Of a DNA stretch of 64,000 nucleotides, positions 17,101-60,035 are shown one piece after another. The DNA comes from an uncultured Bacteroidales bacterium (GTDB taxonomy: Bacteria > Bacteroidota > Bacteroidia > Bacteroidales > WCHB1-69), in the NCBI GenBank assembly GCA_947169105.1, contig CAMVOL010000004.1:40656-104655 (forward strand), written 5' to 3'. Below the pieces are notes generated by a model. That model ran no database searches, was not told the origin of the DNA, and worked only from the letters and a program-made list of their open reading frames with translations. The first letter of the stretch is position 1. The number at the start of each line of letters is the position of its first letter. A program made the position numbers and the translations under genes.

Positions 17101-20100
17101 GTGCCGTCGCCATAGATGTTGCCGGCTTCCTCCATCGCCTTGTTACCCCAAATGATGCAGTTGGTGTATTCGTTGTCGGTGCTGTAATTGTAAATGCCGC
17201 CTCTGCAATAGTTGCTATTCGAACTGGTCGATTTGTTGTTGACAATATTACAGTTGACGAAACGGGAATGATTCCTTGCCGATATGCCTGCCGCACTATA
17301 ATAGGAGTTGTTTGTGGTCGTATTGTTGGCGATGTTCACATTTACGTACAAACCGCCGTTGGTATATAGGCCGCCACCGTTGTTGTTGGTGATGGAGGTG
17401 TTGAAAATCTGCACGGACGCGTTGTCGCTATAAACGCCGTAATTACTTGAGCCATTGTTCTCTATTACGCACTCTTTCACCGTCCCTGTCGTGATGTACA
17501 AGCCAGAACTCCTGTTCTGTCGCATAGTGCTGTTCGACAGGGTGCCGGTGGAATTAAAGTAAATGCCATAATTGTTGTTGTTCTGCGCCGTGCTGTTGCT
17601 TACATTAGTTCCGCCTTCGCAGCGTAAGCCGTAACCTTTGTTTCCGTCAAACATGCAGTGGTCAATACGGCAGTCTTTGGCCCACACGCCATATTGGTGG
17701 TTCCCGGAAAACGTGCAGTTGGACAAATCGGTGTTGGCCAACAGGTATGCGCCGGCATAGTCGCTGGTCGAGGTTACAAATCCGTTACGGAAGGTCAAGC
17801 CGTCGAAGATGCTACCATTGCCTTCGTCAAACGGGCAGCTTTTGTCAAGCACACGGTAGGCCGAGTCGCCGTCCACAACGGTAGCATGGGCGGAGAAGTC
17901 GCGCTGGGTAAGGTCGTAGGGATAAGGTTCATTGCCCTCGAAGCTGCCATAGACGGCCACTTTGGGCTGTGTGATGAGCGAATGTCCGGGCGTGTAGGTG
18001 CCGTTTGCTACCCAGACCATCGCGGGAGGTTCGCATCCCATGGCCACATCCATCGCATACTGGAGGTTGGCGGTGGCGTTACCCCAAGAGGAACCGTCCT
18101 GTGAACCCGCCCCCGTCGTCGTTACATATATTATATTGTTGTTCGCTTCGGGATGCAGAGGGAATGCCATATCATGTTCCGATTCGTAGGCACCGATGTC
18201 AGCACGCTCCTGCTGGATGCGGGTGTTGCCGCCAAGGTCGGTGGCGATGTCTTCCACAAAGATATTTCGGCCCAAATTGGCGCAGATGGAACCAGCTTGC
18301 AGCGTCCAGTCGCCGATGACGTTGTTCACATCAACCCCCGCTTCGGTGGTAGGGCTGGTGAATAAGGGATAGCCCACGCCTGTGCCGGAATTGTTCTTCT
18401 CTAATGTTATGGCGCCGCTGTAGCCGCCCTGCACGGCCGAATTTTCCATCGTGAAATAGTTGCTACCGTTCGTTGCTAACTGGTTGTCGTTGGCGCCCAC
18501 CTTGTTGCCCCACACGATGCTGTTCTGCAATGTGCAGGCGGATGAGGTGTAAAAGCCGCCGCCCTTGCTTACGGCCGAGTTGCGCACGATGTCGCAGGCG
18601 ATGAAACGGATGTTTCCGTTGCTGTTGGACACACCGCCGCCATTGCTGCCTGCCTCGTTATTTCCAATCAGGCATTGCATATAGGTTACCATTCCGTTAT
18701 AGCCGGTGCACACGCCTCCGCCGTTTGTGCGGGCGGTGTTGTTGCTGATTACACAGTTGGTCACTTGCGATACGGAGGAACTATAGTTGTTATGGTAGAT
18801 GCCGCCGCCTGTTGCCGCACTGTTGCGGGTGACAGACGTGTTGCGGATGGTGCTGTTCTGGTAGTCATAGATGCCGCCGCCGTATGTGTTCCAGTTGTCG
18901 CCATTGCTTTCATACTTCGACAGGTTGTTGCGGATGTCGCAGCCCTCGATAATGCCGTTCTTGTTGTAAACGCCCACGCCATATACCTTGTGGCCTGATC
19001 CGGTGCCCGAAAGGTCAATCCGGTTGGTGTGAATCGTGCAGTTGGACAGTGTGCCTCCGTCATTATATACGGCCACCCCGTTGCGTGTCACGTTGCTCTC
19101 AGAACCGGATATAGACGAAATGTTGTTTGTGATTACGCAGTTCTGGAGGGTGCAGTACTTGCGGATGTAGGCGCCGCCGCCCGACCCCACAGTATTCACG
19201 GAACCGCCCCTGATGCAGAAGCCGTCGAACAGGGTGGCGGTGGCTTCCGTGAAGTCAGCACTCTGGTATAGCACGCGACGGGAACCGGAACCGTATAGGA
19301 TGGTATTGTTCATATTGGCCTGTGTGCGGTTGCTGAGGTCGTAGTCCGCCGGCTCGTTGCCGACAAAGCCGCCGTATGCCCGCACGTTGGGCTTGATTTC
19401 ATAGCTGTTGTCCGCTGAGGTGTTGCCGGTGTAAGTTTCGGCCTTCACGTAGAGGTAGGGGGTCACATCGGTGAACGTGTTGGCGATGTCCATCGCCTCC
19501 TGCAGCTCCATGGCATTCTCCCATGAAGTGCCATCGTGCAGGCCTTCGCCGGTGGAGGTGACAAAAATGACCTTGCGCACAATCAGGTGCAGAACCACCA
19601 AGCTGTCGCATTCGTCATTCACATACCAACGATGCTGGTAGATACCCTGCTCACTGACAGGGGTGCCGTAGAAATCGTATGTGCCGCCTTCGTTGATGGT
19701 GACTTCCATGTCGCGCCGCATCGCACAATTGGTACTTTTGCAGAAACGCAGGTTGTTACGATAGCTGGTGGTAGTAATGTTGCGAATGTCGCTGGGATTC
19801 TCTATGTCAATGAATGAATTACTTCTCCCATAAATAGCCCTAGCAGTCCAATCAGTTTTGTAGGTGGTGGAAGAAAATGAATCGTTGTCGTTCCCACTGT
19901 TGTTCAGGAAAGCCACTACTATATTGGAAGTGCCGTCCCACAGGAACGGGTTACTAAATACAATGGTGACCCATTCTTCATCCAATGTCACTTCCCCGCT
20001 GAAAACTTCCTGCATACGGAAAGCAGGAATCCATGTGGTACTAGTCAGATTGTTTTGGAGCGTGTTCCCCATCCATACACTTACTGGGGACTTCGTTTGA

Positions 20101-23136: not shown

Positions 23137-23195
23137 CAATATTAATTTGAAAGTTGAAAACTGAAAATGGAAAAATAGCCAGTGTAAAATGAAAT

Positions 23196-23287
23196 GTGTG
23201 AGGTACGAAAGTATAAAGTAAAAGGTATGAAGTAGGGGTGCCTATCGCACACCCTCTCTTCATACCTTTTATTTGTTACTTATAATC
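23196..23287 (+). repeat. long imperfect hairpin element, copy A (purine-rich arm, core tgcctatcgcacaccc, pyrimidine-rich arm)
   Basis: aaaggtatgaag (23221-23232) pairs perfectly with cttcataccttt (23258-23269). The core is homologous to the copies at 37905-38005 and 48534-48638. Confidence 0.7.
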
Positions 23288-23293
23288 TGGGCT

Positions 23294-23318
23294 TTCAAAC
23301 TGCGAGATGCAGTTTGCC
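23294..23318. repeat. 25-bp hairpin repeat, left copy of an inverted pair bracketing trxB
   Basis: ttcaaactgcgagatgcagtttgcc is the exact reverse complement of 24403-24427. It has an internal 8-bp stem, caaactgc/gcagtttg. Confidence 0.9.
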
Positions 23319-23364: not shown

Positions 23365-24300
23365 CTACTGTATCAGAAACCGTTCGGCTTCGATGGCGGC
23401 CTTGCAGCCTGAGGCGGCGGCGGTGATGGCCTGGCGGAACTGCGGGTCCTGCACGTCGCCGGCGGCAAACACGCCGTCCACACTGGTGGCGGTGCTGTCG
23501 GGCTTGGTGACGATATAGCCCTGCGGGTCCAGCTCGATCTGCCCCGCAAACAGCTCGGTGACGGGCGTATGGCCGATGGCCACGAACACGCCGTCCACGG
23601 GGAGCGTGCGGTTTTCACCGCTGTTCTTGTCGGTGACCGCCAGTCCTGTGACGGCTTTCATGAAGCCCCGTTTCTCGCCGACGATTTCGGTGGGGATGCT
23701 GTTCCATACCACTTCGATATTGGGGGTGTCGAACACGCGCTGCTGCATCGCCTTGGAGGCGCGGAACTCGTCGCGGCGGTGCACCAGATAAACCTTGTTG
23801 CACAGTTTGGCGAGGTAGGTGGCCTCTTCGAGGGCGGTGTCGCCGCCGCCGACCACGGCCACATCGCGGCCGCGGAAGAAGTTGCCGTCGCAGGTGGCGC
23901 AGGCCGAAACGCCGAAGCCGCGGTAGGTGCGCTCACTCTCCAGACCGAGCCAGCGTGCTGTGGCGCCCGTCGCAATGATGACCGTGTCGGCCATGTACTC
24001 GTCGGTGTCATCGACCACGCAGCGGAAGGGGCGTTTGGAAAAATCGACCTCCGTCACCATGCCGGAGCGCATGTCGGTGCCGCAGCGCAGCGACTGCTCA
24101 CGGATGTCGTCCATGATGGCCGGCCCGGACATCCCTTTCGGGTATCCCGGAAAGTTCTCCACTTCCGTGGTGATGGTGAGCTGGCCGCCCGGCTGCGGGC
24201 CTTCAATCAGTATGGGTTTCATGTCGGCGCGTGAGGCGTAGATGCCCGCGGTATAGCCCGCCGGTCCGCCGCCGATGATCAAGCATTTTGTTGTTTCCAT
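23365..24300 (-). CDS. trxB: thioredoxin-disulfide reductase
   Basis: 311 aa. GGGPAGYTAGIYASRA FAD motif, redox-active CATC in SACATCDGNFFRG, NADPH motif VVGGGDTALEEA. Confidence 0.95.
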   Translation of the reverse strand: METTKCLIIGGGPAGYTAGIYASRADMKPILIEGPQPGGQLTITTEVENFPGYPKGMSGPAIMDDIREQSLRCGTDMRSGMVTEVDFSKRPFRCVVDDTDEYMADTVIIATGATARWLGLESERTYRGFGVSACATCDGNFFRGRDVAVVGGGDTALEEATYLAKLCNKVYLVHRRDEFRASKAMQQRVFDTPNIEVVWNSIPTEIVGEKRGFMKAVTGLAVTDKNSGENRTLPVDGVFVAIGHTPVTELFAGQIELDPQGYIVTKPDSTATSVDGVFAAGDVQDPQFRQAITAAASGCKAAIEAERFLIQ

Positions 24301-24402
24301 TTATGTTTAGTTAAAAGTTAATAGTTAAAAGTTAAAAGTTGAAGGGAAGTGGTGGTTTTGGGTTAAGGAGTTAAGAAGTTAAGGAGTTAAGATGTGAATT
24401 GG

Positions 24403-24427
24403 GGCAAACTGCATCTCGCAGTTTGAA
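24403..24427. repeat. 25-bp hairpin repeat, right copy of the inverted pair bracketing trxB
   Basis: ggcaaactgcatctcgcagtttgaa matches the reverse complement of 23294-23318 at 25/25 positions. Confidence 0.9.
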
Positions 24428-24518
24428 TGTCCCGATAATAGGTGATATGTGGCAGGTGATAGGTAGAAGGTTATTTTGTTCAAAAAGGCAGTCTATAATT
24501 TTGGTTGATATTGAGCTG

Positions 24519-24526
24519 CAAAGGTA
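24519..24526 (-). promoter_or_regulatory. -7 box (TAccTTTG), candidate trxB promoter, outside the inverted-repeat bracket
   Basis: The + strand caaaggta reads TACCTTTG on the - strand, about 219 nt upstream of ATG 24300. Confidence 0.4.
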
Positions 24527-24707
24527 AGATTTTTATTTCAAATACCTCTTTTGCTATCGTATAATTTTGCAAATTTCCGTAAAATGTTGAAACATAGACG
24601 TATGGGATTTTCGGTCCTAATTAACAACGAAATCTGACAAGCCCAAGCGATACCGAGGGTTGTCTCTGGAACAAAATCCTATCAGTGGGGAAGGAAAGAT
24701 GGATGTT

Positions 24708-25145
24708 TTATCGGACAATATCCCAGAAAAATAGGGATTCTTCTTCACCGCTTAACAGACCCGTATCAACGATTGTGCGCCTTACGGTGGCAAGGTCGTT
24801 TTCGTTCAGTCGTCCAATGACTTTGCACGTTCCGTTGGCGATACCGCTGGCAATGGCCGACATCTCCATAATGAGGGTGTGTGAGCAGTTGGCGAAAGAG
24901 TCGTGCGCCAAGAAAGTGTTGTCGCTCTTTTTCAATGGTACCTGTGCATTCAGCAGGATGGGCTTGTTGTACAGCGAAGGGTGTATTCTGGAATTGATGA
25001 AGATGCTGCATACCGTGAGCCGGTTGCGTGTGATGCCGGTCACAATGAAGAATTTCGGATGGTAAATGCCCTCAAAGTTCTGCAAGAAGACATCGCCTGT
25101 ATGGATGGCTGCCGTAATAATCTCCTGTGGAAAATCAACACTCAT
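24708..25145 (-). CDS. hypothetical 145-aa protein, candidate toxin partner of the Panacea-domain protein
   Basis: ATG start, 6 nt downstream of the preceding ORF, in the AT-rich islet. No family recognised. The layout (GDVFLQNF..HPKFFIVTG .. NAQVPLKKS .. HDSFANCSHTLIM .. VIGRLNENDL) is loosely reminiscent of MazF/PemK-type SH3-barrel toxins. Confidence 0.6.
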   Translation of the reverse strand: MSVDFPQEIITAAIHTGDVFLQNFEGIYHPKFFIVTGITRNRLTVCSIFINSRIHPSLYNKPILLNAQVPLKKSDNTFLAHDSFANCSHTLIMEMSAIASGIANGTCKVIGRLNENDLATVRRTIVDTGLLSGEEESLFFWDIVR

Positions 25146-25151
25146 TCCGGT

Positions 25152-25691
25152 TCATTTAACGAGCGTTTCCAGCTCCATCTCCTCCTGCACGTACTGTATG
25201 TAACTGTCGGATTCACCTGTTTCCACAAGCATGTTTTTCACATCAATGGGACGGTTGAGCGTGGTGTTGCGCCAAGCGTAGTCATGCGATTTTTCACGTA
25301 TTTCATCCCACGAAAGTTCGCCATATTTTTGGAGGGTTTCGTCAATGATCTGAATATCCATTTTCGACAGGCAACGCATATCAGGCTCCTTCTTGGCAGT
25401 AACCAGATCCCAGTTTTCCACTCCAATCCATGCGGTGAGCTCTGACTGGTTGTTGAAGAATCCGTCCCCACGCACCGATTTGAATATGTCATAGATGTTG
25501 GAGGGCACGGGACCGTCGTTCATTGCGATATAGGTGTCGCCCGTAATCATCATTCCAGCTTGTGAAAGCATATCACGGTCAGAGAAATACAAGATTTTGA
25601 AAACCTTGTGGAAGTCAGCTCTTTTCAGGTGCTTCACAATGTAAAGCACCGCATTCATTGCTTTGTTAAAATTAAAAACTCCTTTCGTCAT
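25152..25691 (-). CDS. Panacea (DUF4065 / SocA-GepA-like) domain protein, antitoxin candidate
   Basis: The track ORF extends to 25769. ATG 25691 (MTKGVFNF...) or ATG 25658 (MNAVLYIVKHL...) fits better given the -7 box at 25700. FHKVFKILYFSDRDMLSQAGMMITGDTYIAMNDGPVPSNIYD resembles DUF4065. Confidence 0.7.
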   Translation of the reverse strand: MTKGVFNFNKAMNAVLYIVKHLKRADFHKVFKILYFSDRDMLSQAGMMITGDTYIAMNDGPVPSNIYDIFKSVRGDGFFNNQSELTAWIGVENWDLVTAKKEPDMRCLSKMDIQIIDETLQKYGELSWDEIREKSHDYAWRNTTLNRPIDVKNMLVETGESDSYIQYVQEEMELETLVK

Positions 25692-25699
25692 TGCGGCGG

Positions 25700-25707
25700 C
25701 AAAAGTA
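25700..25707 (-). promoter_or_regulatory. -7 box (TActTTTG) for the Panacea / 145-aa pair
   Basis: The + strand caaaagta reads TACTTTTG on the - strand. It lies 9 nt from ATG 25691 and about 42 nt from ATG 25658. Confidence 0.55.
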
Positions 25708-25859
25708 CAACAAATTTCCAATATTGCGGAATTTATGCTGAAATAATGCTGAATTTTTGTGGAAATCAAAATGTAATAATTTCAAAATCAGGTCGTTGTT
25801 GTACACATAGCAATCGTTATTTGCAATGCCAAAAAAATGAATATCACAAGCATTCGTAA

Positions 25860-25892
25860 GTGAGCCAGCCGTAAAATCCCGGTCCGATCAAC
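25860..25892 (+). repeat. cassette-junction repeat R1
   Basis: GTGAGCCAGCCGTAAAATCCCGGTCCGATCAAC aligns with R2-R5 (GTGA..C...C/GT[GA]AAA....G....AT.AAC). Confidence 0.7.
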
Positions 25893-25954
25893 CACATGAG
25901 GTGGCGTACGCGGATGTGGTGACATTGGCTATCGTGGATGGGAACGGTAAAATT

Positions 25955-25982
25955 GTAGAGACGCGATTAATCGCGTCTCTAC
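25955..25982. repeat. 28-bp perfect palindrome
   Basis: gtagagacgcgattaatcgcgtctctac equals its own reverse complement. Confidence 0.9.
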
Positions 25983-26084
25983 AGCAGGTCACATACAATT
26001 CTGGGGGGTCCTTGTCCGCCGCCAGCACCAACGTGATGATAGCCTGCCAGAAGGGGGAAACGCCATCCATCAAAATATTATTTG

Positions 26085-26092
26085 TATATTTG
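26085..26092 (+). promoter_or_regulatory. -7 box (TAtaTTTG) heading the + strand cassette array
   Basis: TATATTTG lies about 22 nt upstream of ATG 26114. Confidence 0.55.
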
Positions 26093-26113
26093 CACCGGCA
26101 AAATCAAACAACA

Positions 26114-26182
26114 ATGTTGGGTGCAATAATAACTTTGGTTCTCTTATGGGCTGCCTATAAATGGTTGAAAGAGAATATTTGA
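26114..26182 (+). CDS. 22-aa hydrophobic mini-protein (MLGAII family, copy 1)
   Basis: ATG..TGA reads MLGAIITLVLLWAAYKWLKENI*. It lies directly after the -7 box and has a paralog at 26268. It is below the ORF-track size cut-off. Confidence 0.4.
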   Translation: MLGAIITLVLLWAAYKWLKENI

Positions 26183-26214
26183 GTGAACCATCTATGAAAT
26201 TCCAGTTATAACAA
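26183..26214 (+). repeat. cassette-junction repeat R2
   Basis: GTGAACCATCTATGAAATTCCAGTTATAACAA starts right after the TGA of mini-protein 1. Confidence 0.6.
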
Positions 26215-26267
26215 GTTCTATAGTTTTTTGCCATTGTTTAATATTGTAGCCGCATAAATCAGGTGCC

Positions 26268-26366
26268 ATGTTAGGAGCAATTATATCCATATTATTTGTT
26301 ATATGGTTTGTCTGGAAAGGAATCAAAGATCCTACACCGCCCACGTGGAGACGGAATCTTCATTGA
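26268..26366 (+). CDS. 32-aa hydrophobic mini-protein (MLGAII family, copy 2)
   Basis: Reads MLGAIISILFVIWFVWKGIKDPTPPTWRRNLH*. It shares the MLGAII start and a single predicted TM helix with copy 1. Confidence 0.4.
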   Translation: MLGAIISILFVIWFVWKGIKDPTPPTWRRNLH

Positions 26367-26374
26367 GGCCTATA

Positions 26375-26408
26375 GTGAACCAGCCGTGAAAATTTGGTCT
26401 GAATAAAC
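26375..26408 (+). repeat. cassette-junction repeat R3
   Basis: GTGAACCAGCCGTGAAAATTTGGTCTGAATAAAC ends 13 nt before ATG 26422. Confidence 0.7.
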
Positions 26409-26421
26409 TAGAAAAGGATTT

Positions 26422-26631
26422 ATGGAAACAATATTCGATCATAATGTAACGAAAAGGGAAATTGAGGAGTTTGGTCTTGTTGGCTCAAAGGATGTTGATA
26501 GTATAACGGCCAACATTAACCTCGCTTATTTATTTTGGCATCGTGGTAATAAAACTAAAGCCAGATTATATGCAGACAGACTACCTATTGAATATAGGAA
26601 TGACTTTTATAGGACTATATCACACTCTTGA
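26422..26631 (+). CDS. hypothetical 69-aa protein (array cassette 3)
   Basis: ATG start flanked by junction repeats R3 and R4. No family recognised. Confidence 0.45.
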   Translation: METIFDHNVTKREIEEFGLVGSKDVDSITANINLAYLFWHRGNKTKARLYADRLPIEYRNDFYRTISHS

Positions 26632-26654
26632 ATATATAGCGAAATCATTTTTTT

Positions 26655-26689
26655 GTGAGACAGTCGTGAAATATTGGGTATAATCAAAC
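26655..26689 (+). repeat. cassette-junction repeat R4
   Basis: GTGAGACAGTCGTGAAATATTGGGTATAATCAAAC ends 12 nt before ATG 26702. Confidence 0.7.
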
Positions 26690-26701
26690 TTATTAATCCT
26701 C

Positions 26702-27214
26702 ATGAAAAAATTCTTTTTACTAGTATTGTTTTTTATTCCTATTGCAATTGTAGGACAAGTCTTACGAGAGAGAACTACTGGCGTTAAGGATTTTGGTACA
26801 GAACGATGGGAATTGATGGAATATGAGTTACGACAATATACAATTGTGGATTCTTCGATTGAATTGCAATTAAGAGAAATATTGGGTATTAATCAAACGT
26901 CTGAAATTCAAAGCATGTGGAAACATTTGATGTTCGTGGAGTACATTAATGACACAATAAAATTAAGAATAGAATATCAGGATGCGCCGTACAAGCTGCC
27001 TGGATTAGTGGGTTTCTTTCGTATTGATGATTGGGACATATTGTTTTACAACAAGCTACCAACTTTTCTGAAAGCCACGAAAAAGTCCAAGACTTTTGCT
27101 TATGAAAGACATCTTTACAAGATAGGTAAAGATGATTGGGTGGAATTTCCCGGCGACAATTGCAGTCATACTTGGAATTTGATTTATTTTAACAACACGT
27201 TTTTAATTGAGTGA
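26702..27214 (+). CDS. hypothetical secreted 170-aa protein (array cassette 4)
   Basis: N-terminal signal peptide MKKFFLLVLFFIPIAIVGQ. No family recognised. Its size and export signal resemble orphan immunity-type proteins (inference). Confidence 0.65.
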   Translation: MKKFFLLVLFFIPIAIVGQVLRERTTGVKDFGTERWELMEYELRQYTIVDSSIELQLREILGINQTSEIQSMWKHLMFVEYINDTIKLRIEYQDAPYKLPGLVGFFRIDDWDILFYNKLPTFLKATKKSKTFAYERHLYKIGKDDWVEFPGDNCSHTWNLIYFNNTFLIE

Positions 27215-27244
27215 CTCTGACGTGAAATTGCAGCTATAATCAAC
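27211..27244 (+). repeat. cassette-junction repeat R5
   Basis: GTGACTCTGACGTGAAATTGCAGCTATAATCAAC contains the TGA stop of cassette 4 and ends 3 nt before ATG 27248. Confidence 0.7.
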
Positions 27245-27247
27245 ATC

Positions 27248-28039
27248 ATGATATATATCATATCCTTACTATTTGTTGCCGGCATCAGCCTTGTGATTGT
27301 TAGATGGTGGTACAATTCACCCCGTCAGAAAGGCAAACAAGGGGAACAAAGGGTGCGTGATATTCTTTCTCATCTACCAGAAGATTACCATGTCTTGCAG
27401 GACATCATATTGAAAACAGAAAAAGGGACAACACAAATTGATCATGTTGTCATCAGTCGGTATGGGATATTCACTATAGAGACAAAGAACTATCGAGGTG
27501 AAATTTATGGTGACGACACCCGTAAAGAATGGACACAGCTTATCGTTACAGATGTAACGTATGCAAAGAAATGGTGGAAAACATATACCTATGTGACGAA
27601 GAACCATTTTTATAACCCAGTCAAACAATCGTTAGGGCACGCTTATAGGATCAAAGAACTCCTTTCTGCATACCCCAACCTTAAAATTGTACCCATTGTT
27701 GTGTTTGCAGGTGACGCCTTACTGAACAACGTCAGGAGCAATCACCATGTCATCTATGAAAACCGTTTATTGGAGTTGATTTATTCATACGGGACCTGTT
27801 GCCTGACAGATTACGATGTTCAAACAGTGCTTTCCCTATTCAATGAGAACAATGTCAGAGAGACGGTGAGCGACAGACAACATGTCGAGAACCTTAGAAA
27901 TGCAGCAAGAGAGGTCAATGCCACCATCCATTCAGGCATTTGTCCGAAATGTGGCGGCCGTTTGATTGAACGGCACGGCAAATATGGTACATTTTATGGA
28001 TGTTCCAACTATCCTCAATGCAGATTCATTGTAAAATAG
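27248..28039 (+). CDS. NERD (nuclease-related) domain protein with an N-terminal TM helix and a C-terminal topoisomerase-type C4 zinc ribbon
   Basis: 263 aa. GEQRVRDILSHLPEDYHVLQDIIL...QIDHVVISRYGIFTIETKNY (NERD). CPKCGGRLIERHGKYGTFYGCSNYPQCRF (zinc ribbon). Confidence 0.8.
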   Translation: MIYIISLLFVAGISLVIVRWWYNSPRQKGKQGEQRVRDILSHLPEDYHVLQDIILKTEKGTTQIDHVVISRYGIFTIETKNYRGEIYGDDTRKEWTQLIVTDVTYAKKWWKTYTYVTKNHFYNPVKQSLGHAYRIKELLSAYPNLKIVPIVVFAGDALLNNVRSNHHVIYENRLLELIYSYGTCCLTDYDVQTVLSLFNENNVRETVSDRQHVENLRNAAREVNATIHSGICPKCGGRLIERHGKYGTFYGCSNYPQCRFIVK

Positions 28040-28560
28040 CAGCGGAAGTTATCTATCCGTCCGGTTCTTCCGCGGCATCACCTGCGGTGTTCTTCCGTAC
28101 CTGCCGCCCGTGCCGCGGGCTGACCCACGAGGCTTTCCCGCACAACCCCACGTTACGGCGTTCACTTCGTTCCGCCTCACATGGGGCTACAAAGCTTGCA
28201 CCCCTACGGGGTGCCGCACGAAACCCTTCCCTTCCTAAAATACGGCGCGATTCCGAAGTCGCACGCCGCCTTGCGATTTTTGCCGTTAAGAAATTGAGAC
28301 GTTTCGAGCGTGAAGAAACGCGAACTGTTTGAAGCAACACGGAATGGAATGCAGTGTTGCAAGTTTTCGCGTTTTAGCGAGAAACGGCCAATTTTAGGGA
28401 AAAATCGTGCAGCGGCAAAGCGCATTTCTTTTGGTTCGTTTTCTTTTTGCAATCGAAAAGAAAATGAACAAATATAACCGAAGGTTAAATACACGATTTA
28501 GAGACTGACAAAACCAAAAATATTGTCACCAAATGTTTTTGGCAACAGTACCTTAACTCC
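28040..28560. other. non-coding tract with a GC-rich, hairpin-dense left part and an AT-richer right part; function unknown
   Basis: Contains the perfect hairpin cacccc-tac-ggggtg (28199-28213) and gcccg-tgccg-cgggc. It shares words with 57484-57631 (ctgac[cg]cac, cacccct[ag]cggggt, atggggct). Track ORFs here have no start context or family. Confidence 0.5.
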
Positions 28561-28588
28561 TTAACTTTCAATTTTCAGTTCTCAACTT

Positions 28589-30376
28589 TCAGTTCAAGAA
28601 CGCGATCACATCGCCCTTCCGCACTTTTTCCCCTTGGCTTGCCACCACTTGCAGCAGCTTGCCGTCGTACAGGGCTTTCACCTCGTCCTGGCCGTAGTAG
28701 GCCTCCACATAGCATACGGTGTCGCCTTCTTTGTAGGACGTGCCTTGCGGCGGGTTCATGCCCTGTCCGGTGACGGGAAGTTCCCACAGCACGATGCCGT
28801 CGGAGGGGGCAATGACGGGTTTTGCGTCGGGATGCTGGGCCGTTACAGCGGCAATCAGCTCCTCGCGTACCACTTCGGGCAGCTTGATCTCCTTGACGAT
28901 GACTTTGATGTTGGATTGCTGCTTCTTGGCTTCGAGTTCGCGCTCGAAATTCTTCTTGGCCGCACCGCTCTTATAGTCGATGTACTGCGTCGGGTGCATG
29001 GCGTACTCGAAGAGTTCCTCCTCGTCTTCGCCGACGTCCCAGCCCTGCTCTTCCATCAGCTTGCGGTACTTCGGCAGCTCGTCCGGATAATGGTCCTGCG
29101 GGTTGGTGGTGGAGAATTCGTATCCTTTTTCTTTGGCCAATTCCACGATTTCGGGCGCCAGTGTGCCGGGGAGTGTGCCGGCTTTGCCGAGGATCATGTC
29201 CCACTGCTTCTGGTCCATGGAACTGAAACGCTCCTTGCCTTGCGCCATCTGCAGGATGTTCATCAGGGCGATGTTCTTGACGTACTGGCTGAACGGGGTG
29301 ACCAGAGGCGGGTTGCCGACTTTGGGCCACACGTAGGCCACCTCCTCAAACAGCTTCACCAAAAGCTCGTCTTCGGAAAGTTCTTTTTGACCGCTGGCTT
29401 TCAGCGACATATTGATGGCTTTGTGCACGCCTTTGAGGTCGGCCATCATCGAGCCCATCATACCGCCGGGCAGGCCGCAGCCCACGAGCAGGGAGGTGGA
29501 GATGCGGTTCTTCGGGTCGATCCAGTAGCCGAGGAAGTCGTCCATAAACTCTTGGGTGAGACGGCGCACCTCCATATAGGCGTTCATGTTGATTTCGGGG
29601 ACGTCGAAGCCCGCATCTTTCAGCATGGCCTGGATGGTGATGACATCGGGATGCACCATGCCCCAGGAGAGGGGTTCGACAGCCACGTCGATGATGTCGG
29701 CGCCGGCTTTGGCCACCTCTAATGTGGAGGCGACGGAGAAGCCCGGGCCGGTGTGGCCGTGGTATTGCACGAGGATGTGCGGGTATTTTTCCTTGATGGC
29801 CTTGACCAGTTTGCCGAGGGTGGCGGGGCGGCCCACACCGGCCATGTCCTTCAGCCCGATTTCGTCACAGCCGAACTCCACGACTTTATCCACCACGCCC
29901 ATATAGTACTCCACGGTGTGGATGTCGGAGTGGGTGATGCTGAGGGCGACTTGCGAGATCATGCCGGCCTCTTTGGCGAACTTGACGGAGTTTTCGAGGT
30001 TGCGGGGGTCGTTGAGGCCGCAGAAGGAGCGGGCGACATCGACACCTTGGGCTTTCTTCACCTTGAACATCAGTCGGCGCACGTCGGCGGGCACGGGGTC
30101 CATACGGAGGGCATTGAGGGCGCGCTCCAGCATCTGGCACTGGATGCCGGCTTCCCGCAGCGGCTTCGTCCATGCGCGGACGGCCTTGTTCGGGTTCTCG
30201 CCGTAAAGAAGGTTCACTTGTTCAAAAGCGCCGCCGTTGGTCTCCACGCGGGCGAAACAGCCGCAATCCACGATGGCGGGTGCGACACGCACCAGCTGGT
30301 CCACGCGGGGCTGGTACTTTCCGGAAGATTGCCACATGTCACGATAAACGAGACAGAATCTGATTTGTTTGCTCAT
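28589..30376 (-). CDS. pyruvate/oxaloacetate carboxyltransferase (OadA / transcarboxylase-5S-like) with a C-terminal biotinyl/lipoyl-like domain lacking the canonical MKM lysine
   Basis: 595 aa. LKDMAGV, VQYHGHTGPG and GADIIDVAVEPLS carboxyltransferase motifs. The C-terminus EGDTVCYVEAYYGQDEVKALYDGKL occupies the position where EAMKM is expected. Confidence 0.8.
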   Translation of the reverse strand: MSKQIRFCLVYRDMWQSSGKYQPRVDQLVRVAPAIVDCGCFARVETNGGAFEQVNLLYGENPNKAVRAWTKPLREAGIQCQMLERALNALRMDPVPADVRRLMFKVKKAQGVDVARSFCGLNDPRNLENSVKFAKEAGMISQVALSITHSDIHTVEYYMGVVDKVVEFGCDEIGLKDMAGVGRPATLGKLVKAIKEKYPHILVQYHGHTGPGFSVASTLEVAKAGADIIDVAVEPLSWGMVHPDVITIQAMLKDAGFDVPEINMNAYMEVRRLTQEFMDDFLGYWIDPKNRISTSLLVGCGLPGGMMGSMMADLKGVHKAINMSLKASGQKELSEDELLVKLFEEVAYVWPKVGNPPLVTPFSQYVKNIALMNILQMAQGKERFSSMDQKQWDMILGKAGTLPGTLAPEIVELAKEKGYEFSTTNPQDHYPDELPKYRKLMEEQGWDVGEDEEELFEYAMHPTQYIDYKSGAAKKNFERELEAKKQQSNIKVIVKEIKLPEVVREELIAAVTAQHPDAKPVIAPSDGIVLWELPVTGQGMNPPQGTSYKEGDTVCYVEAYYGQDEVKALYDGKLLQVVASQGEKVRKGDVIAFLN

Positions 30377-30861: not shown

Positions 30862-31201
30862 GGACATAGAACGACTCCAGCATATTCTTGAAGCTATAAA
30901 CGTGCTTATTGACTACAAGGAACGACATACATTGGAAGAAGCTCAGTCTGATCCTGTGGTGTATTTCGGACTGGTGAAGCACGTTGAAATTATAGGTGAG
31001 GCTGTATATATGCTGACATTGGAGTATAAAGAAAAGCACAACGAAGTAAATTGGGGTGATATTGAGCGTATGAGGCACGTGTTGGTGCATGGATATTATA
31101 AAATCAGGCCAATACAGCTCTGGGAGACTATTGCTGTGGATATCCCTCAACTGAAACCTTTTATTATGAAATTGATAGAAGAAAAATTGTCTGAACAATG
31201 A
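30845..31201 (+). CDS. hepT: HEPN (DUF86) toxin HepT
   Basis: 118 aa, overlapping mntA by 17 nt. The RX4HXY motif is present in ERMRHVLVHGYY. Confidence 0.85.
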   Translation: MREEIKDIERLQHILEAINVLIDYKERHTLEEAQSDPVVYFGLVKHVEIIGEAVYMLTLEYKEKHNEVNWGDIERMRHVLVHGYYKIRPIQLWETIAVDIPQLKPFIMKLIEEKLSEQ

Positions 31202-31644
31202 ACATTGCACTCCGTTCCTTTCTCCGCCACGTGGCCCTGATTGCCGCCTTTTTTTTCCTGAATCTCTATTTGTTTTCGCAGACAACCGTTTATCAGAAAG
31301 ACAAGTGGGGCGCAAAACTCTATTATGTCGATGAGACCAACACCATGCGCATCAAGGACAAGTGGGGCGACAAACTCTACTATTTCGACGGGAAGACCAT
31401 CCGTCTGAAGGACAAGTGGGGCCAGGCGTTGGCCTATATGGACGGCAATACGGTGCGACTGAAGGACCAGTGGGGCGATAAACTCTACTACTTCGACGGA
31501 AACACCATCCGCCAAAAGGATCAATGGGGCGAAAAACTCTATTATCTGGATGGCAATGTTTTGAAAATCAAGGATAAATGGGGTGCGCCGATGTTCTATT
31601 TCGATGGGATTCCCGAAAGGTGGATGATTGTTTGCGTAATTTGA
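31198..31644 (+). CDS. secreted tandem-repeat protein (six 18-aa KDKWGxKLYYxDGxT[IV]R repeats)
   Basis: Its ATG overlaps the hepT stop (ATGA). Signal peptide ALIAAFFFLNLYLFSQ. The 54-nt coding repeats span about 31282-31605. They may be related to short beta-hairpin 'beta-flower'-type repeats (unverified). Confidence 0.7.
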   Translation: MNIALRSFLRHVALIAAFFFLNLYLFSQTTVYQKDKWGAKLYYVDETNTMRIKDKWGDKLYYFDGKTIRLKDKWGQALAYMDGNTVRLKDQWGDKLYYFDGNTIRQKDQWGEKLYYLDGNVLKIKDKWGAPMFYFDGIPERWMIVCVI

Positions 31645-37862: not shown

Positions 37863-37904
37863 GGAACGGAAAACGGAAAAATGAAAATGGAAAAATGAAA
37901 ATTA

Positions 37905-38005
37905 TGGAGTAAAAAGTAGGAGGTAATAAGTAGGAGGTTTCCAACGCACAACCCATCTTCACACCACCCACCTAATACCTTTCACCTATTACATATTACC
38001 TTATA
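37905..38005 (+). repeat. long imperfect hairpin element, copy C, inside the moxR-DUF58 spacer
   Basis: gtaaaaagtaggaggtaataagtaggagg - tttccaacgcacaaccc - atcttcacaccacccacctaatacctttcacc. Homologous to copy A and, in reverse complement, to copy D. Confidence 0.7.
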
Positions 38006-38100
38006 CATACGAAACTGCCGATTAGCCGCCATGCTATGACGGCTCTACCAAATGCCCCCTTAACTTTTAACTTGATAAACTTGATGAACTTGTAACTATT

Positions 38101-41659: not shown

Positions 41660-41717
41660 GATTTAATAATTTAAAAACCTATAATTTAATAACTTAATAG
41701 TTTTAATAATTTAATAA

Positions 41718-42968
41718 TTAGTGAATTTTTTTCTGGCCGTCGAATTTGTAGCCGATGGTGGCGAAGAAAAGGATATAGATATAGCTGACGAACAGGATGC
41801 AGTAGGCGGTCTGGTTGCCGATGACATCGCACAACTTGCCGTAAACCAGCGGGATGATGGCGCCGCCGGCGATAGCCATAATCAACAGGGCGGATCCCAG
41901 TTCGGTGTGCTTTCCGAGGTCGTGGATGGAAAGCGGCCAGATGGCGGGCCACATGATGGCGTGGGCGAAACTCAGCATAATGATGCACGCTACAGACACC
42001 ATCCCTTTCGTCCCGACCGCCGCAATGACGAGCGCGATGGAAATGAACAGCTGGATGATGAGGGCCTTGCGTTGCGAAATCAGCTTCGGTATGGTGATGA
42101 TGCCCAACAGGTAACCCACCACAAGGGCAATGAGGGCATAGACACCGAAGTTTTTGCCTGCCGAAATGGGCATTCCCCAGAATTCGCCGTAACGCACCAG
42201 ATAGTCAATGGCGATGACCTCCGCACCCACATAGAAAAAGATGGCCAATGCACCAAGCCACAGGTACGGATAGCTGAAAATCGACTTCTCCTTGCCGTCC
42301 GACTGCACCGTTTCCACTTCGGGTTCAGGAAGTTTGGCTAATTTTAGGAAGATAACCAGCACTATCAGGATGGTCGTGATGATGATGTAGGGGAGGATAA
42401 TCTGGTTGGAAAGATGCTGAAGCAAAAATTCGCGATTGGGTCCGGCGGGCATCGTCTGGAGCAGTTCCACTTCTTTTTCGGTGGTGGAGAAAAGCGCCTT
42501 GTACAGGACGAGGATACCGATCATGCCGGCCACTTTGTTGCAGATGCCCATCATGCTGATGCGCCGGGCCGCCGTCTCTATCGGCCCGAGGATGGTGGCG
42601 TAAGGGTTGGAGGCGGTCTGCAGGATAGAGAGTCCCAGCCCTTGTACGAAAAGCCCCACAAGGAAGAAACCGAACTGGCGTGTCATGGCCGCCGGCACGA
42701 AGATGATGGAGCCGATGGCCATCGTCACCAAGCCTAAAATCATACCATTCCCGTAACCCACCCGTTTGATGAGGTACGATGACGGAATTGCCATCACAAA
42801 ATAGGAGATGTAGAAGGCGAAAGGTACGAAAGAGGACTGGAAATCAGTAAGTTCGCAAGTTGTTCGGAAAAACGGAATCAGGATGTTGTTGAGCCACGTC
42901 ACGAAGCCGAAGACGAAGAACAGCGATCCGATGACGAAAAGGCTGAAGGCGTATTTGTTCTGTTTCAT
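41718..42968 (-). CDS. sugar:H+ MFS transporter (FucP/GluP family)
   Basis: ATG 42968 gives MKQNKYAFSLFVIGSLFFVFGFVTWLNNILIPFF. 12-TM pattern. Confidence 0.85.
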   Translation of the reverse strand: MKQNKYAFSLFVIGSLFFVFGFVTWLNNILIPFFRTTCELTDFQSSFVPFAFYISYFVMAIPSSYLIKRVGYGNGMILGLVTMAIGSIIFVPAAMTRQFGFFLVGLFVQGLGLSILQTASNPYATILGPIETAARRISMMGICNKVAGMIGILVLYKALFSTTEKEVELLQTMPAGPNREFLLQHLSNQIILPYIIITTILIVLVIFLKLAKLPEPEVETVQSDGKEKSIFSYPYLWLGALAIFFYVGAEVIAIDYLVRYGEFWGMPISAGKNFGVYALIALVVGYLLGIITIPKLISQRKALIIQLFISIALVIAAVGTKGMVSVACIIMLSFAHAIMWPAIWPLSIHDLGKHTELGSALLIMAIAGGAIIPLVYGKLCDVIGNQTAYCILFVSYIYILFFATIGYKFDGQKKIH

Positions 42969-47601: not shown

Positions 47602-48495
47602 TTACTTTTTCTTGTCGGTTATCTTCTCTTTTGGACCGTCATAAACGGGAATCTTATCCTGTTTTACAATCGAATAGATGAGGAATCCGATGCCGAGCAG
47701 AATCATCGGGATGCTGAGTTTCTGCCCGATGTTGAGAATCATGGTCGCCTCCTTCGCCACTTGGTCGGCTTTGAGAAATTCGATGAGAAAACGGGCAGTG
47801 AAGATGACGAGAATCATAATGCCCGTTGTGCGTCCCGGAGGCACTTTCCCTTTGGCAAAACGGAAGTAATAGACGGTCAATGCGACAAACAAGAGGAAAT
47901 AGACGATGGATTCGTAGAGTTGCGACGGGTGTCGGAAGGTGCCGGCGATGGCGGAACCGTCGGAATCGTAGCCGCCGTAGATGAAGTTGAAGGCCCACGG
48001 CATCGTGGTGACGGAGCCGAAAATCTCGTGGTTCATCAGGTTGCCCAACCGCACGAAGGCGGCTGCGATGGGGATAGCGATAACGATTCTGTCAATGAGC
48101 CAGAAGAAGTTCATCTTGCGGGTGTAGGCAAAATAGACAATCCACAGGATCATGGCAATGGCACCGCCGTGGCTCGCCAATCCCTGATAGCCGATGAAGT
48201 GCCAGTCTTCGTCAATGGGCAGCAGCACCTGTAGAGGGTGCGCCACCAGAAATTCCGGTTCGTAGAACAGAAAATGCCCCAACCGCAAACCAACAATGCA
48301 CCACACAATCGTCCAGATGGAGAAAGTATCCAGTGTTTTTTGCGGAACTTCTTCCTTCCTGAAAATCTGCTGTAATGTCATGTAAGCCAGTACAAAACCC
48401 AGAGCAAGCAGGATGCCGTACCAACGGATTTCCATGCTGCCGAGGCTGAATGCCACGGGGTTAACCGTCCAGGTTATAAATGCTAAGAGGTTCAT
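47602..48495 (-). CDS. lgt: prolipoprotein diacylglyceryl transferase
   Basis: The track start 48498 is TTG; the ATG is at 48495. IRWYGILLALGFVLAY and GRLGNLMNHEIFG-like VRLGNLMNHEIFG. Confidence 0.9.
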   Translation of the reverse strand: MNLLAFITWTVNPVAFSLGSMEIRWYGILLALGFVLAYMTLQQIFRKEEVPQKTLDTFSIWTIVWCIVGLRLGHFLFYEPEFLVAHPLQVLLPIDEDWHFIGYQGLASHGGAIAMILWIVYFAYTRKMNFFWLIDRIVIAIPIAAAFVRLGNLMNHEIFGSVTTMPWAFNFIYGGYDSDGSAIAGTFRHPSQLYESIVYFLLFVALTVYYFRFAKGKVPPGRTTGIMILVIFTARFLIEFLKADQVAKEATMILNIGQKLSIPMILLGIGFLIYSIVKQDKIPVYDGPKEKITDKKK

Positions 48496-48533
48496 CAAGT
48501 TACAAGTTTATCAAGTTACAAGTTTATCAGGTC

Positions 48534-48638
48534 GTAGGTAAAAGGAAGAAGGTAGAAGGTAGAAGGTAAAAGGTATTAGGTATGAAGTTTAAAGAGGGGT
48601 TTGTGCGATAGCAACCTATTACTTATTACTTTTTACTC
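48534..48638 (-). repeat. long imperfect hairpin element, copy D (reverse orientation), inside the pheS-lgt spacer
   Basis: Read on the - strand: gtaaaaagtaataagtaatagg - ttgctatcgcacaaaccc - ctctttaaacttcatacctaataccttttacc. Collinear with copy C. Confidence 0.7.
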
Positions 48639-48642
48639 GAAA

Positions 48643-49665
48643 CTACAGTTTCGCTGCGGTGAATTGTTGAAGGAAACGGACGTCGTTCTCGAAGTAGAGG
48701 CGGATGTCGTTGGTCTTGTACTTGAGCATGGTCATGCGTTCGATGCCGAGGCCGAAAGCAAAACCGGAGTATTTTTTGCTGTCGATGCCGCAGTTTTCGA
48801 GCACGTTAGGATCGACCATGCCGCAGCCGAGGATTTCCACCCAGCCGGTGTGCTTGCACAGGGCGCAGCCTTCGCCGCCGCAGATGTTGCACGACACGTC
48901 CATTTCCGCCGACGGCTCCGTGAACGGGAAGTAGGAGGGACGCAGACGGATGCGTGTGCTTTCGCCGAACATCTGTTTTGCAAAATACATCAGTGTCTGC
49001 TTCATGTCGGCGAAAGAGACGTTTTCGTCGATGTACAGACCTTCCATCTGGTGGAAGATGCAGTGTGCGCGGGAAGTGATGGCTTCGTTGCGGAATACGC
49101 GGCCCGGGCAGATGACGCGGATGGGAGGCTTTTGCTTCTCCATCGTCCGCACCTGAAGCGTGGAGGTGTGGGTGCGGAGCGCGATGTCGGGCTTCTGGTC
49201 AATGAAGAAGGTGTCCTGCATGTCGCGGGCGGGATGCTCCTCCGGGAAGTTGAGGGCCGTGAAGATGTGCCAGTCATCCTCAATGTCGGGGCCGGAAACG
49301 GTGGTGAAGCCTATTCTCTCGAAGATGTCGCAAACTTCGTCCATCATGATGGAGATGGGGTGGCGGGATCCGAGTTCTACGGTAGCGCCGGGGCGGGTGA
49401 CGTCGGTCAGACTGCCCTCGGTGGGGGTGGCGTCTTCCAGACGCTGCTTCTGTTCGTCGAAGAATGTCTGTGCCTTCTGCTTCAGCAGGTTCACCTGTTG
49501 ACCGAAGGCTTTGCGCTGCTCTGCCGGCACATTCTTGATCTCGTTCAGCAGCGACTGCAACTCGCTTTTCTTGCTGAGGAATTTCAGACGGAAGTTGTCC
49601 AAGTCCGCCGCCGCGTTCACTTTGAACGCCTCTATTTCTGCTGTGATTTTTTCGATGTTGTCCAT
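48643..49665 (-). CDS. pheS: phenylalanine--tRNA ligase alpha subunit
   Basis: 340 aa. HPARDMQDTFF, FRNEAITSRAHCIFHQMEG, GFAFGLGIERM. Confidence 0.95.
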   Translation of the reverse strand: MDNIEKITAEIEAFKVNAAADLDNFRLKFLSKKSELQSLLNEIKNVPAEQRKAFGQQVNLLKQKAQTFFDEQKQRLEDATPTEGSLTDVTRPGATVELGSRHPISIMMDEVCDIFERIGFTTVSGPDIEDDWHIFTALNFPEEHPARDMQDTFFIDQKPDIALRTHTSTLQVRTMEKQKPPIRVICPGRVFRNEAITSRAHCIFHQMEGLYIDENVSFADMKQTLMYFAKQMFGESTRIRLRPSYFPFTEPSAEMDVSCNICGGEGCALCKHTGWVEILGCGMVDPNVLENCGIDSKKYSGFAFGLGIERMTMLKYKTNDIRLYFENDVRFLQQFTAAKL

Positions 49666-49738
49666 TATCTTTCTCTATAATGAGACCCACGGCCGTGTGT
49701 CTCTACTTGATGAACTTTATTACTTGATAAACTTGCAA

Positions 49739-55310: not shown

Positions 55311-55352
55311 TCCCCATTTTTTCGGACGCACGCGGTGCGTCCCTACAATTTA

Positions 55353-57483: not shown

Positions 57484-57631
57484 ATTGTTTTTTTATTCCC
57501 CGCGCTGACGCACAGGGCTATATTCTTTCACCCCTGCGGGGTTCTATAAGGTATTTGTTTTTTTCATACGGGGATTTGCATCCCCGTTTATATTCTCTTG
57601 TCCCTATGGGGCTGCTTGATGTATTTGTTTT
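57484..57631. repeat. ~70-bp tandem repeat (about 2.2 units) with embedded GC hairpins
   Basis: Units start at 57484, 57553 and 57623 with a(t)ttgttttttt. Each full unit contains tatattct[tc]tt. Hairpins: cacccctgcggggt(t) and acgggga-tttgca-tccccgt. Confidence 0.7.
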
Positions 57632-59533: not shown

Positions 59534-59567
59534 TGTGTTTTTTATTTATAAGTTAAGGAGTGAAATT

Positions 59568-60028: not shown

Positions 60029-60035
60029 GGAAAAA

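Follow-up and report, generated by a model that had tools for sequence, protein, structure and literature searches.

A candidate dispersed hairpin repeat with heptamer-array arms in intergenic gaps of uncultured rumen Bacteroidales

The DNA considered here is a 64,000-nucleotide stretch of contig CAMVOL010000004.1 from an uncultured Bacteroidales bacterium (hereafter "the window"), and the subject is a non-coding hairpin unit found in it three times. Copy C lies in the gap between moxR and DUF58 (37863-38100, exactly from gene to gene), copy D in the gap between pheS and lgt (48496-48642, minus strand), and copy A just beyond trxB. The three copies are homologous. The unit is probably, if far from certainly, a narrow-range dispersed repeat resembling the repetitive extragenic palindromic (REP) sequences and the MITEs, the miniature inverted-repeat transposable elements, and it would be transcribed along with the operons it sits in. 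As a family it is new, though of a kind already known; what is unusual about it is that the two arms of the hairpin are complementary microsatellite arrays.

The source is an uncultured Bacteroidales of ruminant gut metagenomes, with cargo proteins of the type IX secretion system (Por_Secre_tail) and TAnnTTTG promoter boxes. The identities of the flanking genes are Pfam calls made on a near-identical metagenome contig. Coordinates are collected in Table 1, and the loci of strains and relatives are referred to by numbers beginning with L.

The repeat unit and its three copies in the window

The unit is about 95 nt long (90-100 nt) and is made of a purine arm (GTAnnAG)n, a core GGT-N6-CGCACA-(A)ACC, CCTCTTTA, and a pyrimidine arm (CCTAYYA)n. 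The order of the blocks is alike at all loci. The upstream stop codon is followed by (GAAAAYN)n, (GATGAAAG)n and (GTAnnAA)n, and then by GTAGGAGGTnnCCAACGCACAACCCCTCTTTA, (CCTAYYA)n, a leader of (AACTTTT or AACTTGATA)n and the ATG of the next gene. Copy A sits between the trxB stop (23365) and the start (23039) of a gene for a 2974-amino-acid protein, ahead of the TATCTTTG promoter-type box of that gene. It is antisense to both of these minus-strand neighbors, and it is also found in strain L002. Strain L001 has one more AGTAAAA heptamer in arm D, so heptamer slippage is seen directly.

An earlier note on this DNA, made from its letters alone, had proposed that the three copies are homologous. 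The sequences quoted there sit where they were placed, and two tests bear out the homology. The pattern GGT-N6-CGCACA-MMC matches three times in the window against 0.05 times expected, a 60-fold excess, and none of 100 shuffled sequences reached three matches. Also, in an independent test, when a module from another genome (L014, described below) was used alone as an nhmmer query, it found only the three window copies in the 64 kb, with E-values of 1.2e-11 for copy C (37907-37992), 5.2e-10 for copy A and 6.8e-8 for copy D. By blastn, the same module is identical to copy A at 26 of 26 bases and to copy C at 30 of 32. The similarity is therefore not an effect of low complexity or base composition. 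Across an alignment of seven loci, the mean column identity is 72% and the CGCAC core is invariant; the loop sequence CYAWCGCAC is constant, and the arms vary. AGGAGG occurs in only four of the seven copies; a Shine-Dalgarno or anti-Shine-Dalgarno role for GTAGGAGGT was set aside.

It is very improbable that the copies have no common descent and resemble each other because heptamer arrays arose in place by slippage. Such arrays are certainly abundant: tandem repeats with a period of 6-9 (and multiples) make up 13.8% of the intergenic bases of the window versus 0.46% of the coding bases. The leaders and post-stop blocks recur apart from the unit, and a relative (L042) whose site is empty has AAGTAAAAC there, which is similar to the AGTAAAA repeat of arm D. 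However, a non-repetitive core with its flanks (about 35 nt, AAGTAGGAGGTnnCCAACGCACAACCCCTCTTTA) is common to several loci and genomes, and the core pattern stands far above chance. Independent origin is contradicted for the core and arms and holds for the outer blocks only.

Further copies and their orientation

When 185,579 species-representative genomes were scanned with a strict pattern that fits each of the three copies, the outcome was two true loci, both in the yak-rumen metagenome-assembled genome (MAG) RGIG10213 (L012 and L014), and one chance match in a coding region. A relaxed pattern gave 25 matches in JGI metagenomes, of which three were true by nhmmer, representing two distinct loci (L019 and L022), and 22 were due to chance. 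Together with the window copies, these make seven distinct loci with long arms. In addition, the gap between DUF58 and PAD in L009 holds two tandem divergent copies, (GTAGGAA)n followed by GGAGGGAGGATTCGCGATAGCACAGTTTCCCTCC, in which the pyrimidine arm is absent. The duplicated unit of about 152 nt has (GTAGGAA/GTATAAA)n arrays and a 13-bp hairpin with a loop akin to the core of the window family. This core is quasi-palindromic: in a hand alignment, the two orientations match at about 12 and 13 of 19 positions, respectively. The purine array on the 5' side and the CCCTCCTTTTAA motif make a sense orientation of the L009 copies probable.

Each of the four new long-arm loci lies in sense orientation between flanking genes that run in one direction. 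The shared orientation that had been noticed earlier for C and D relative to transcription thus extends to the new loci, although not to copy A, which is antisense; with six of the seven loci sense, the one-sided binomial probability is 0.06. Judged by these searches, its range does not go beyond a narrow clade of uncultured Bacteroidales of the rumen. That the element is carried by phages or plasmids was also considered and rejected, with no matches in viral contigs, phages or plasmids.

Filled and empty sites in relatives

The loci of relatives were fetched through homologues of DUF58 and Lgt. At the junction of moxR and DUF58, the gap is only 18 nt in L009 and L010 (DUF58 83% identical), 96 nt in L011, where it contains (GAAAATT)n only, and 128 nt in L040 (93%), where the core and arms are absent and the leader ACTTGACAAACTTGATGAACTTTGTAAC is present. 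In L007 and L008 (93%), the (GAAAAYT)n block, a short hairpin CTGCCGATTAGCCGCC..GACGGCTC and the leader are kept, and an insert of 1.9 kb with a GH16 gene stands exactly at the position of the core in the window. Copy C is absent from this junction in L009, L040, L041 and L011. At the junction of pheS and lgt, the gap in L042 (Lgt 90%) is about 26 nt and the unit is absent, and the gap in L040 is 59 nt, with another GC-rich hairpin, GTAGAGACGCGGTGCACCGCGTCTCTAC, in place of the unit, followed by ACCTGATAGAC.

This comparison shows, at the level of the sequences compared, that the unit is gained or lost as DNA in short stop-to-start gaps between close relatives, and that the part that comes and goes is the arm-core-arm. 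The earlier note had suggested a MITE/REP-like repeat family and named copy number and empty sites in relatives as the points to check. Both speak for such a family: there are more copies at unrelated loci in related genomes, and both operon sites are empty or otherwise filled in close relatives.

As an observation in its own right, the junction of moxR and DUF58 is hypervariable among relatives with 92-93% identical DUF58.

Outer blocks that belong to the sites

The sequences between the unit and the neighboring genes have a different history. Blocks similar to the one after the moxR stop in the window follow moxR in L007 and L011 without the core, and the whole gap between OADA and trxB in L001 is a similar block of the (GAAAAYN)n type. 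The blocks to the left of copies A and C have 65-70% identity over 57 nt in a repeat search. On the other side, the DUF58 leader, ACTTGATGAACTT(T)GTAAC, is found in L040 and L007, both without core and arms, with L007 sharing the short hairpin of the window as well. At pheS-lgt of L040, ACCTGATAGAC is the counterpart of the window leader, and ACCTGATAGACACAGTAAAC stands at the place of the lgt leader without the unit. The lgt leader of the window, GACCTGATAAACTTGTAACTTGATAAACTTGTAACTTG, is, by this comparison, a local expansion of an older leader. Since the leaders and post-stop blocks recur without the unit, they belong to the sites.

They are part of a pattern that runs through the clade, with (GAAAAYN)n after stop codons and G-poor arrays of 7-9-mers before start codons, in a strand-specific manner. 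Tandem 7-9-mers make up much of the short intergenic gaps of the whole window, and the G content of the 30 nt before start codons is 13.8%, versus 27.5% for the window. Arrays of (AACTTTT)n or ACTTGATAAAC precede other start codons without the hairpin unit. Between the end of the leader array and the ATG lie 0-12 nt in C, D, L012, L014, L019 and L022; L009 and L042, which have the same gene order, have no such arrays.

Two claims of the earlier note change in this light. The collinearity it saw between the two operon gaps along their whole length is homology as far as arm-core-arm is concerned, and a shared intergenic pattern in the outer blocks; to judge from the relatives, it is unit homology plus a clade-wide pattern. 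The proposal that the element supplies the translation-initiation region of the downstream gene does not hold, since leaders occur without the unit in L040, in L007 and at other starts.

In L012 (4653-4665), L019 (10373-10400) and L022 (1683-1710), all on the minus strand, the upstream open reading frames (ORFs) enter the (GAAAAYN)n block, which codes for their final residues and stop (ending in RRMEK, RKGKLKNEN and RKSKTETL, respectively).

Transcription and translation signals

No TAnnTTTG box occurs on either strand in the eight modules; the window has 40 of them. A sigma-70 scan is not applicable to Bacteroidota. An internal promoter for the downstream gene was rejected as a role of the unit, there being no such box on either strand. 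A pattern scan for terminator-like sites found none at the three copies on either strand. With neither a promoter box nor a terminator pattern in the gaps, the downstream genes need read-through, and we infer that the operon mRNA most likely includes the unit. The view that it is a transcribed element, put forward in the earlier note, is thus reasonable for the operon gaps but does not suit copy A, which is antisense.

A weak intrinsic terminator or attenuator between cistrons, with copy A as the terminator of trxB, is an improbable role. It would fit the position of copy A, which comes right behind the stop codon of trxB and ahead of the next gene's promoter-type box, and the A/U-rich outer arms; other gene ends of the window carry GC-rich hairpins, with a T run after one of them (12135-12159, minus strand). 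However, the scan found no terminator in any copy, the GC-rich part of the stem has no U-tract after it, and a stop inside moxR-DUF58 or pheS-lgt would leave the downstream gene without a promoter.

Translational coupling, in which the purine block after the stop codon would mask the leader through long-range pairing and a terminating ribosome would open it, was rejected too, as the leader stays unpaired. The probability of being unpaired from -20 to +10 is 0.48-0.63, equal to or above that of controls with the upstream part shuffled.

Folding and covariation

Copy A has a perfect 12-bp pairing of 23221-23232 with 23258-23269, as the earlier note had it, and its hairpin is far more stable than shuffled sequences, with a z-score of -8.31 on the plus strand (the strand that reads CGCACA) and -6.88 on the minus strand. 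The four new copies also fold well, with z-scores on the CGCACA strand and its opposite of -3.4 and -2.7 in L012, -4.4 and -4.6 in L014, -5.4 and -4.7 in L019, and -4.0 and -4.8 in L022. This means that five of the seven long-arm copies have highly significant hairpins on both strands. Those of copies C and D are weak: the z-scores are -1.25 sense and -2.48 antisense for C, and -0.94 and -3.14 for D, with the antisense folds gaining through G-U pairs, and folds of the two whole operon spacers give 0.0 and -0.8. The long imperfect hairpin that the earlier note saw in every copy is therefore real in copy A, but in C and D the sense strand folds like shuffled sequence. No strand asymmetry of hairpin stability is consistent across the seven copies.

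In the alignment of the seven sequences, 82% of the cells are paired in register, versus 34-54% when the partner is slid. Compensatory changes in the arms, named earlier as a mark of RNA structure, were sought and not found in this sample, which gives low power: the covariation score is 0.076 versus 0.081 for shuffles (335 of 500 shuffles equal or exceed the observed value), and RNAalifold returns a covariation term of +1.02, where a positive value means no support, with one compensatory pair. To judge from this alignment, the pairing is upheld by sequence conservation, with no sign of selection for it. A known RNA family was rejected: Rfam gives no match at gathering score at the copies, and its E-value mode yields only chance-level, microRNA-like hairpins far below threshold.

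The main alternative is that the unit is a selected cis-acting RNA of polycistronic mRNA, whose intercistronic stem-loop would act as a processing site for RNase III or RNase E or as a barrier to 3'-exonucleases and set the ratio of the upstream and downstream cistrons, with the heptamer arrays as sites for an RNA-binding protein. It is the less likely explanation, yet one with several observations on its side. The units lie in gaps without a promoter box, at six of the seven long-arm loci in sense to co-directional genes; the core is strongly conserved across non-orthologous loci of different genomes; a different hairpin takes the same place between pheS and lgt in L040; and the leader of the downstream gene stays unpaired. 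Against it, the arms do not covary, the operon copies of the window fold like shuffles on the mRNA strand, stability has no consistent strand asymmetry, the same junctions in close relatives manage without the unit, copy A is antisense, and the orientation bias has a one-sided probability of only 0.06.

Folding on both strands about equally would also suit a site that acts in DNA, for instance a hairpin or cruciform to which a recombinase, nucleoid protein or factor of replication or repair binds, with the loop as the recognition motif. This is doubtful on balance. The conserved loop between variable arms agrees with it, as does the junction of moxR and DUF58, a rearrangement hotspot where L007 and L008 have their insert at the core position, and heptamer-rich blocks also edge a 4.3-kb island of the window (24301-28588). 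However, no recombinase or integrase gene stands beside any copy, an inverton would need its arms farther apart than the roughly 10-20 nt seen here, and there is no known partner protein.

A probable dispersed repeat whose arms may age

Under the REP/MITE-like reading, heptamer slippage would lengthen, shorten and erode the arms. Copies that are young (such as A, L014 and L019) would be long near-perfect palindromes, and old ones (C, D) would be left without much pairing; the spread of hairpin quality, from z -8.3 to -0.9, is expected for copies of differing age. In an operon mRNA, the unit would add an intercistronic stem-loop, and the older, G-poor leader downstream would stay open. By analogy with REP, ERIC and Correia elements, the effect would most likely be modest, on mRNA processing or stability between cistrons, and not essential. 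As a guess from the anatomy, the unit may be mobilized in trans by a nuclease or transposase that recognizes the GTAG-flanked hairpin, or may move by recombination at heptamer microhomologies.

Several points weigh against the dispersed repeat. The copies seen are few, with three in about 74 kb of the source genome (none of them in the 10 kb upstream of the window) and two strict matches in RGIG10213, and none was found in about 125 kb of the protein-fetched loci of relatives beyond the divergent L009. No target-site duplication was seen at the borders of filled versus empty sites (window versus L042, L040 and L009) or at the ends of copy A, where heptamer arrays blur the borders and a short one may escape, and no terminal inverted repeats apart from the hairpin were seen at those sites. 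No transposase gene was identified either. A scan of ten ORFs, five of which belong to the 4.3-kb island by copy A, gave no Y1 or other transposase; there was no Y1 transposase among the Pfam calls for neighbor genes, and no insertion sequence in the window or the relatives' loci examined. Six of seven long-arm loci being sense and the filling of stop-to-start gaps are unexpected for purely selfish DNA, and hint at selection or function at the RNA level. Also, one hairpin stands between pheS and lgt where a relative has another, and a hairpin could be required there.

Comparison with known repeats

REP sequences are extragenic imperfect palindromes of 20-40 nt, GC-rich, with a conserved 5' GTAG or GTGG; they occur in tens to hundreds of copies, often as inverted pairs, and come with a gene for a REP-associated tyrosine transposase (RAYT). 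REP and BIME (REPIN) elements with RAYT transposases are found in Enterobacteria and Pseudomonas. Like REP, the unit is an extragenic imperfect palindrome, often just past a stop codon and co-transcribed, and its presence varies among close relatives. In C, A, L012, L014 and L019 (five of seven), the inner stem has GTAG directly on its 5' side, and in D and L022 it has GTAA; GTA simply opens every arm heptamer. Unlike REP, the palindrome is 70-95 nt long with arms of AT-rich heptamer arrays, the copies seen are few with no inverted pairs among them, and no RAYT was found in the DNA examined. Given its atypical size and composition and no RAYT seen, the unit cannot be filed under REP on these sequences, nor under classical MITEs, with no target-site duplication or separate terminal inverted repeats seen. 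In the general sense of a dispersed repeat, it is present or absent at orthologous sites and has copies at non-orthologous ones.

ERIC (or IRU) elements of enterobacteria and the Correia elements (CREE, NEMIS) of Neisseria are intergenic imperfect palindromes of 100-150 nt inside transcription units. As RNA they form long hairpins, and by way of RNase E or RNase III they change how stable the flanking mRNA is, depending on orientation. The unit resembles them as an intergenic imperfect palindrome inserted within transcription units, but they have defined ends (terminal inverted repeats, and a TA duplication in Correia) and lack arms made of microsatellites. Measured effects on RNA exist for those families, whereas the unit is known here from sequence alone. 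BOX elements of Streptococcus pneumoniae are modular, with boxA, boxB and boxC of 45-59 nt, a stable hairpin, and intergenic, co-transcribed positions. They share with the unit a dispersed modular build, a variable number of internal sub-units and a hairpin; the sub-units are 7 nt here versus 45-59 nt there, and the sequences are not related. Short tandemly repeated repetitive (STRR) sequences of cyanobacteria are intergenic heptamer direct repeats.

Within the Bacteroidales, the account of BrickBuilt by Klein et al. (2015; PMC4596501) describes a MITE of Porphyromonas gingivalis with a 23-nt minisatellite between a leader and a tail with small inverted-repeat ends, present in 19 copies per genome and having promoter activity. 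By that account, both are non-coding dispersed elements of Bacteroidales with an internal tandem repeat, always intergenic and limited in hosts. Against the same description, the unit differs in that its repeats are 7 nt long and make up two arms, complementary to each other, on either side of a conserved loop, and in that it lacks a promoter box. Direct repeats of the heptamer TAACTGA are found in Beggiatoaceae, Cyanobacteria and some Bacteroidetes; the arrays are mostly forward and a few bases from a start codon, they are absent in relatives with the same gene order, and their function is unknown (MacGregor 2015; PMC4679880). Only the outer blocks, that is, the leader and post-stop arrays, resemble these. 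The heptamers differ, and the TAACTGA arrays are direct repeats without a conserved hairpin core and complementary arms.

Neighboring features

The 4.3-kb island is an insertion of low GC content (38-46%) between the oxaloacetate-decarboxylase gene (OADA) and trxB, with both ends rich in heptamers. It encodes a protein with a SocA/Panacea antitoxin domain and a NERD nuclease that carries a zinc ribbon of the Top1 type. It is absent in L001 and L002, and there 23 nt separate the OADA stop and the ATG of trxB. A second hairpin, CAAACTGCGAGATGCAGTTTG, occurs in inverted orientation on both sides of trxB (23293-23318 and 24403-24427), each time adjoining heptamer arrays, within a 48-nt inverted repeat of 85% complementarity.

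A family of GC-rich hairpins framed by GTAG...CTAC (e.g., GTAGAGACGCGATTAATCGCGTCTCTAC and GTAGGGACGCCATATTATGACGTCCCTAC) is found mostly at gene ends, and one of them takes, in the pheS-lgt gap of L040, the place that copy D has in the window. A match to the Rfam small RNA Acido-Lenti-1 (57498-57543, plus strand; 38 versus a gathering score of 37 bits) is located in a gap of 149 nt that contains several small hairpins; both flanking genes are on the other strand. In the region 59525-60035, a PF05635 gene ("23S rRNA-intervening sequence" four-helix bundle; 59610-59987, minus strand) has 8-mer arrays, GTGAAAAT and GTGAAGTT, on its two sides. Finally, a 54-nt (18-codon) tandem repeat at 31296-31583, of about 4.6 copies with about 70% identity and the words AAGGACAAGTGGGGC...CTCTACTATTTCGACGG, falls in a stretch called intergenic by a rough gene call (31091-31577) and is assigned to no gene there.

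Table 1. Positions of the repeat unit, its surroundings and related features (window unless another locus is named).
Feature	Position	Strand	Remark
2974-aa gene	start 23039	-	downstream of trxB
(GAAAAYN)n-type block TGAAAGTTGAAAACTGAAAATGGAAAAAT	23148-23176	+	left of copy A; resembles block left of C
Copy A, unit	23211-23283	+	near-perfect hairpin
Copy A, left arm	23211-23236	+	
Copy A, core GGTGCCTATCGCACACC	23237-23253	+	
Copy A, right arm	23254-23283	+	
trxB, thioredoxin-reductase-type flavoprotein	23365-24300	-	stop 23365; Pfam
moxR-type AAA_3 ATPase gene	stop at 37862	+	Pfam
(GGAAAAY/GAAAATG)n tandem block	37863-37908	+	directly after moxR stop; outside dispersed unit
Copy C, unit (moxR-DUF58 gap)	37909-38006	+	sense to operon; hairpin decayed
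Copy C, left purine heptamer arm	37909-37937	+	
Copy C, core GGTTTCCAACGCACAACC	37936-37953	+	
Copy C, right pyrimidine arm	37954-38006	+	
Short hairpin CTGCCGATTAGCCGCC..GACGGCTC	38015-38049	+	site feature, not unit
G-poor leader of AACTTGATA-type repeats	38057-38100	+	reaches DUF58 ATG; site feature
DUF58/VWA_2 gene	start at 38101	+	Pfam
lgt	47602-48495	-	Pfam
Leader GACCTGATAAACTTGTAACTTGATAAACTTGTAACTTG	48496-48533	-	before lgt ATG; 16-nt unit x 2.5 (Tandem Repeats Finder)
Copy D, unit (pheS-lgt gap)	48534-48636	-	sense to operon; hairpin decayed
Copy D, left arm	48636-48615	-	
Copy D, core	48616-48598	-	
Copy D, right arm	48597-48534	-	
pheS	48643-49665	-	Pfam
Copy in L012			gap between FabF-like ketosynthase and acyl carrier protein; RGIG10213
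Copy in L014			gap between MBL-fold hydrolase and FolE; RGIG10213
Copy in L019 (same locus as L036)			upstream of obg; JGI metagenome
Copy in L022			JGI metagenome locus
DUF58-PAD gap, L009	8520-8890		371 nt (28 nt in window); tandem duplication of ~152-nt unit
1.9-kb insert, L007	8013-10000		GH16 gene and small ORF
1.9-kb insert, L008	1-2072		GH16 gene and small ORF
Remnant of GH16 insert, L041	2746-3008		
Gaps with tandem 7-9-mers (examples)	1541-1596, 14091-14116, 24309-24392, 28551-28595, 41661-41729, 49705-49735, 59560-59589, 60003-60028		
Start-codon arrays without hairpin unit	L007 20595-20650; L012 5880-5911; window trxB leader		
GTAG...CTAC hairpins	25955-25982, 55320-55347, 12283-12310		
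GTAG...CTAC hairpin	12135-12159	-	then T run, like a terminator
GTAG...CTAC hairpins, relatives	L040 ~19765-19795; L046 ~2690-2720		

What the unit would mean for the clade

A more ambitious idea, and an unlikely one, is that the hairpin and the strand-specific arrays form a "punctuation" system for operons in a clade of Bacteroidales that does without Shine-Dalgarno sequences. Its arrays, (GAAAAYN)n after the stop, (GTAnnAG)n and (CCTAYYA)n as arms, and the G-poor (AACTTTT)n or (AACTTGATA)n before the start, would bind an RNA-binding protein of the S1, Csp or RRM type, and the hairpin would isolate the purine arrays from the leader. If this were true, a mobile cassette would re-tune the ratio of neighboring cistrons wherever it landed.

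If the dispersed-repeat reading holds, the unit is one more clade-restricted intergenic hairpin repeat beside REP, ERIC, BOX, Correia and BrickBuilt. Its practical value would lie mostly in the annotation and assembly of rumen Bacteroidales MAGs, where the elements and heptamer arrays will break assemblies, shift stop codons and mark recent rearrangements. More interesting is the setting, in which some 14% of intergenic sequence is short-period repeats that are strand-specific to stop and start codons, an echo of the unexplained heptamer arrays in Beggiatoaceae, Cyanobacteria and some Bacteroidetes. The natural pairs of insertion and empty site could serve to test a post-transcriptional role.

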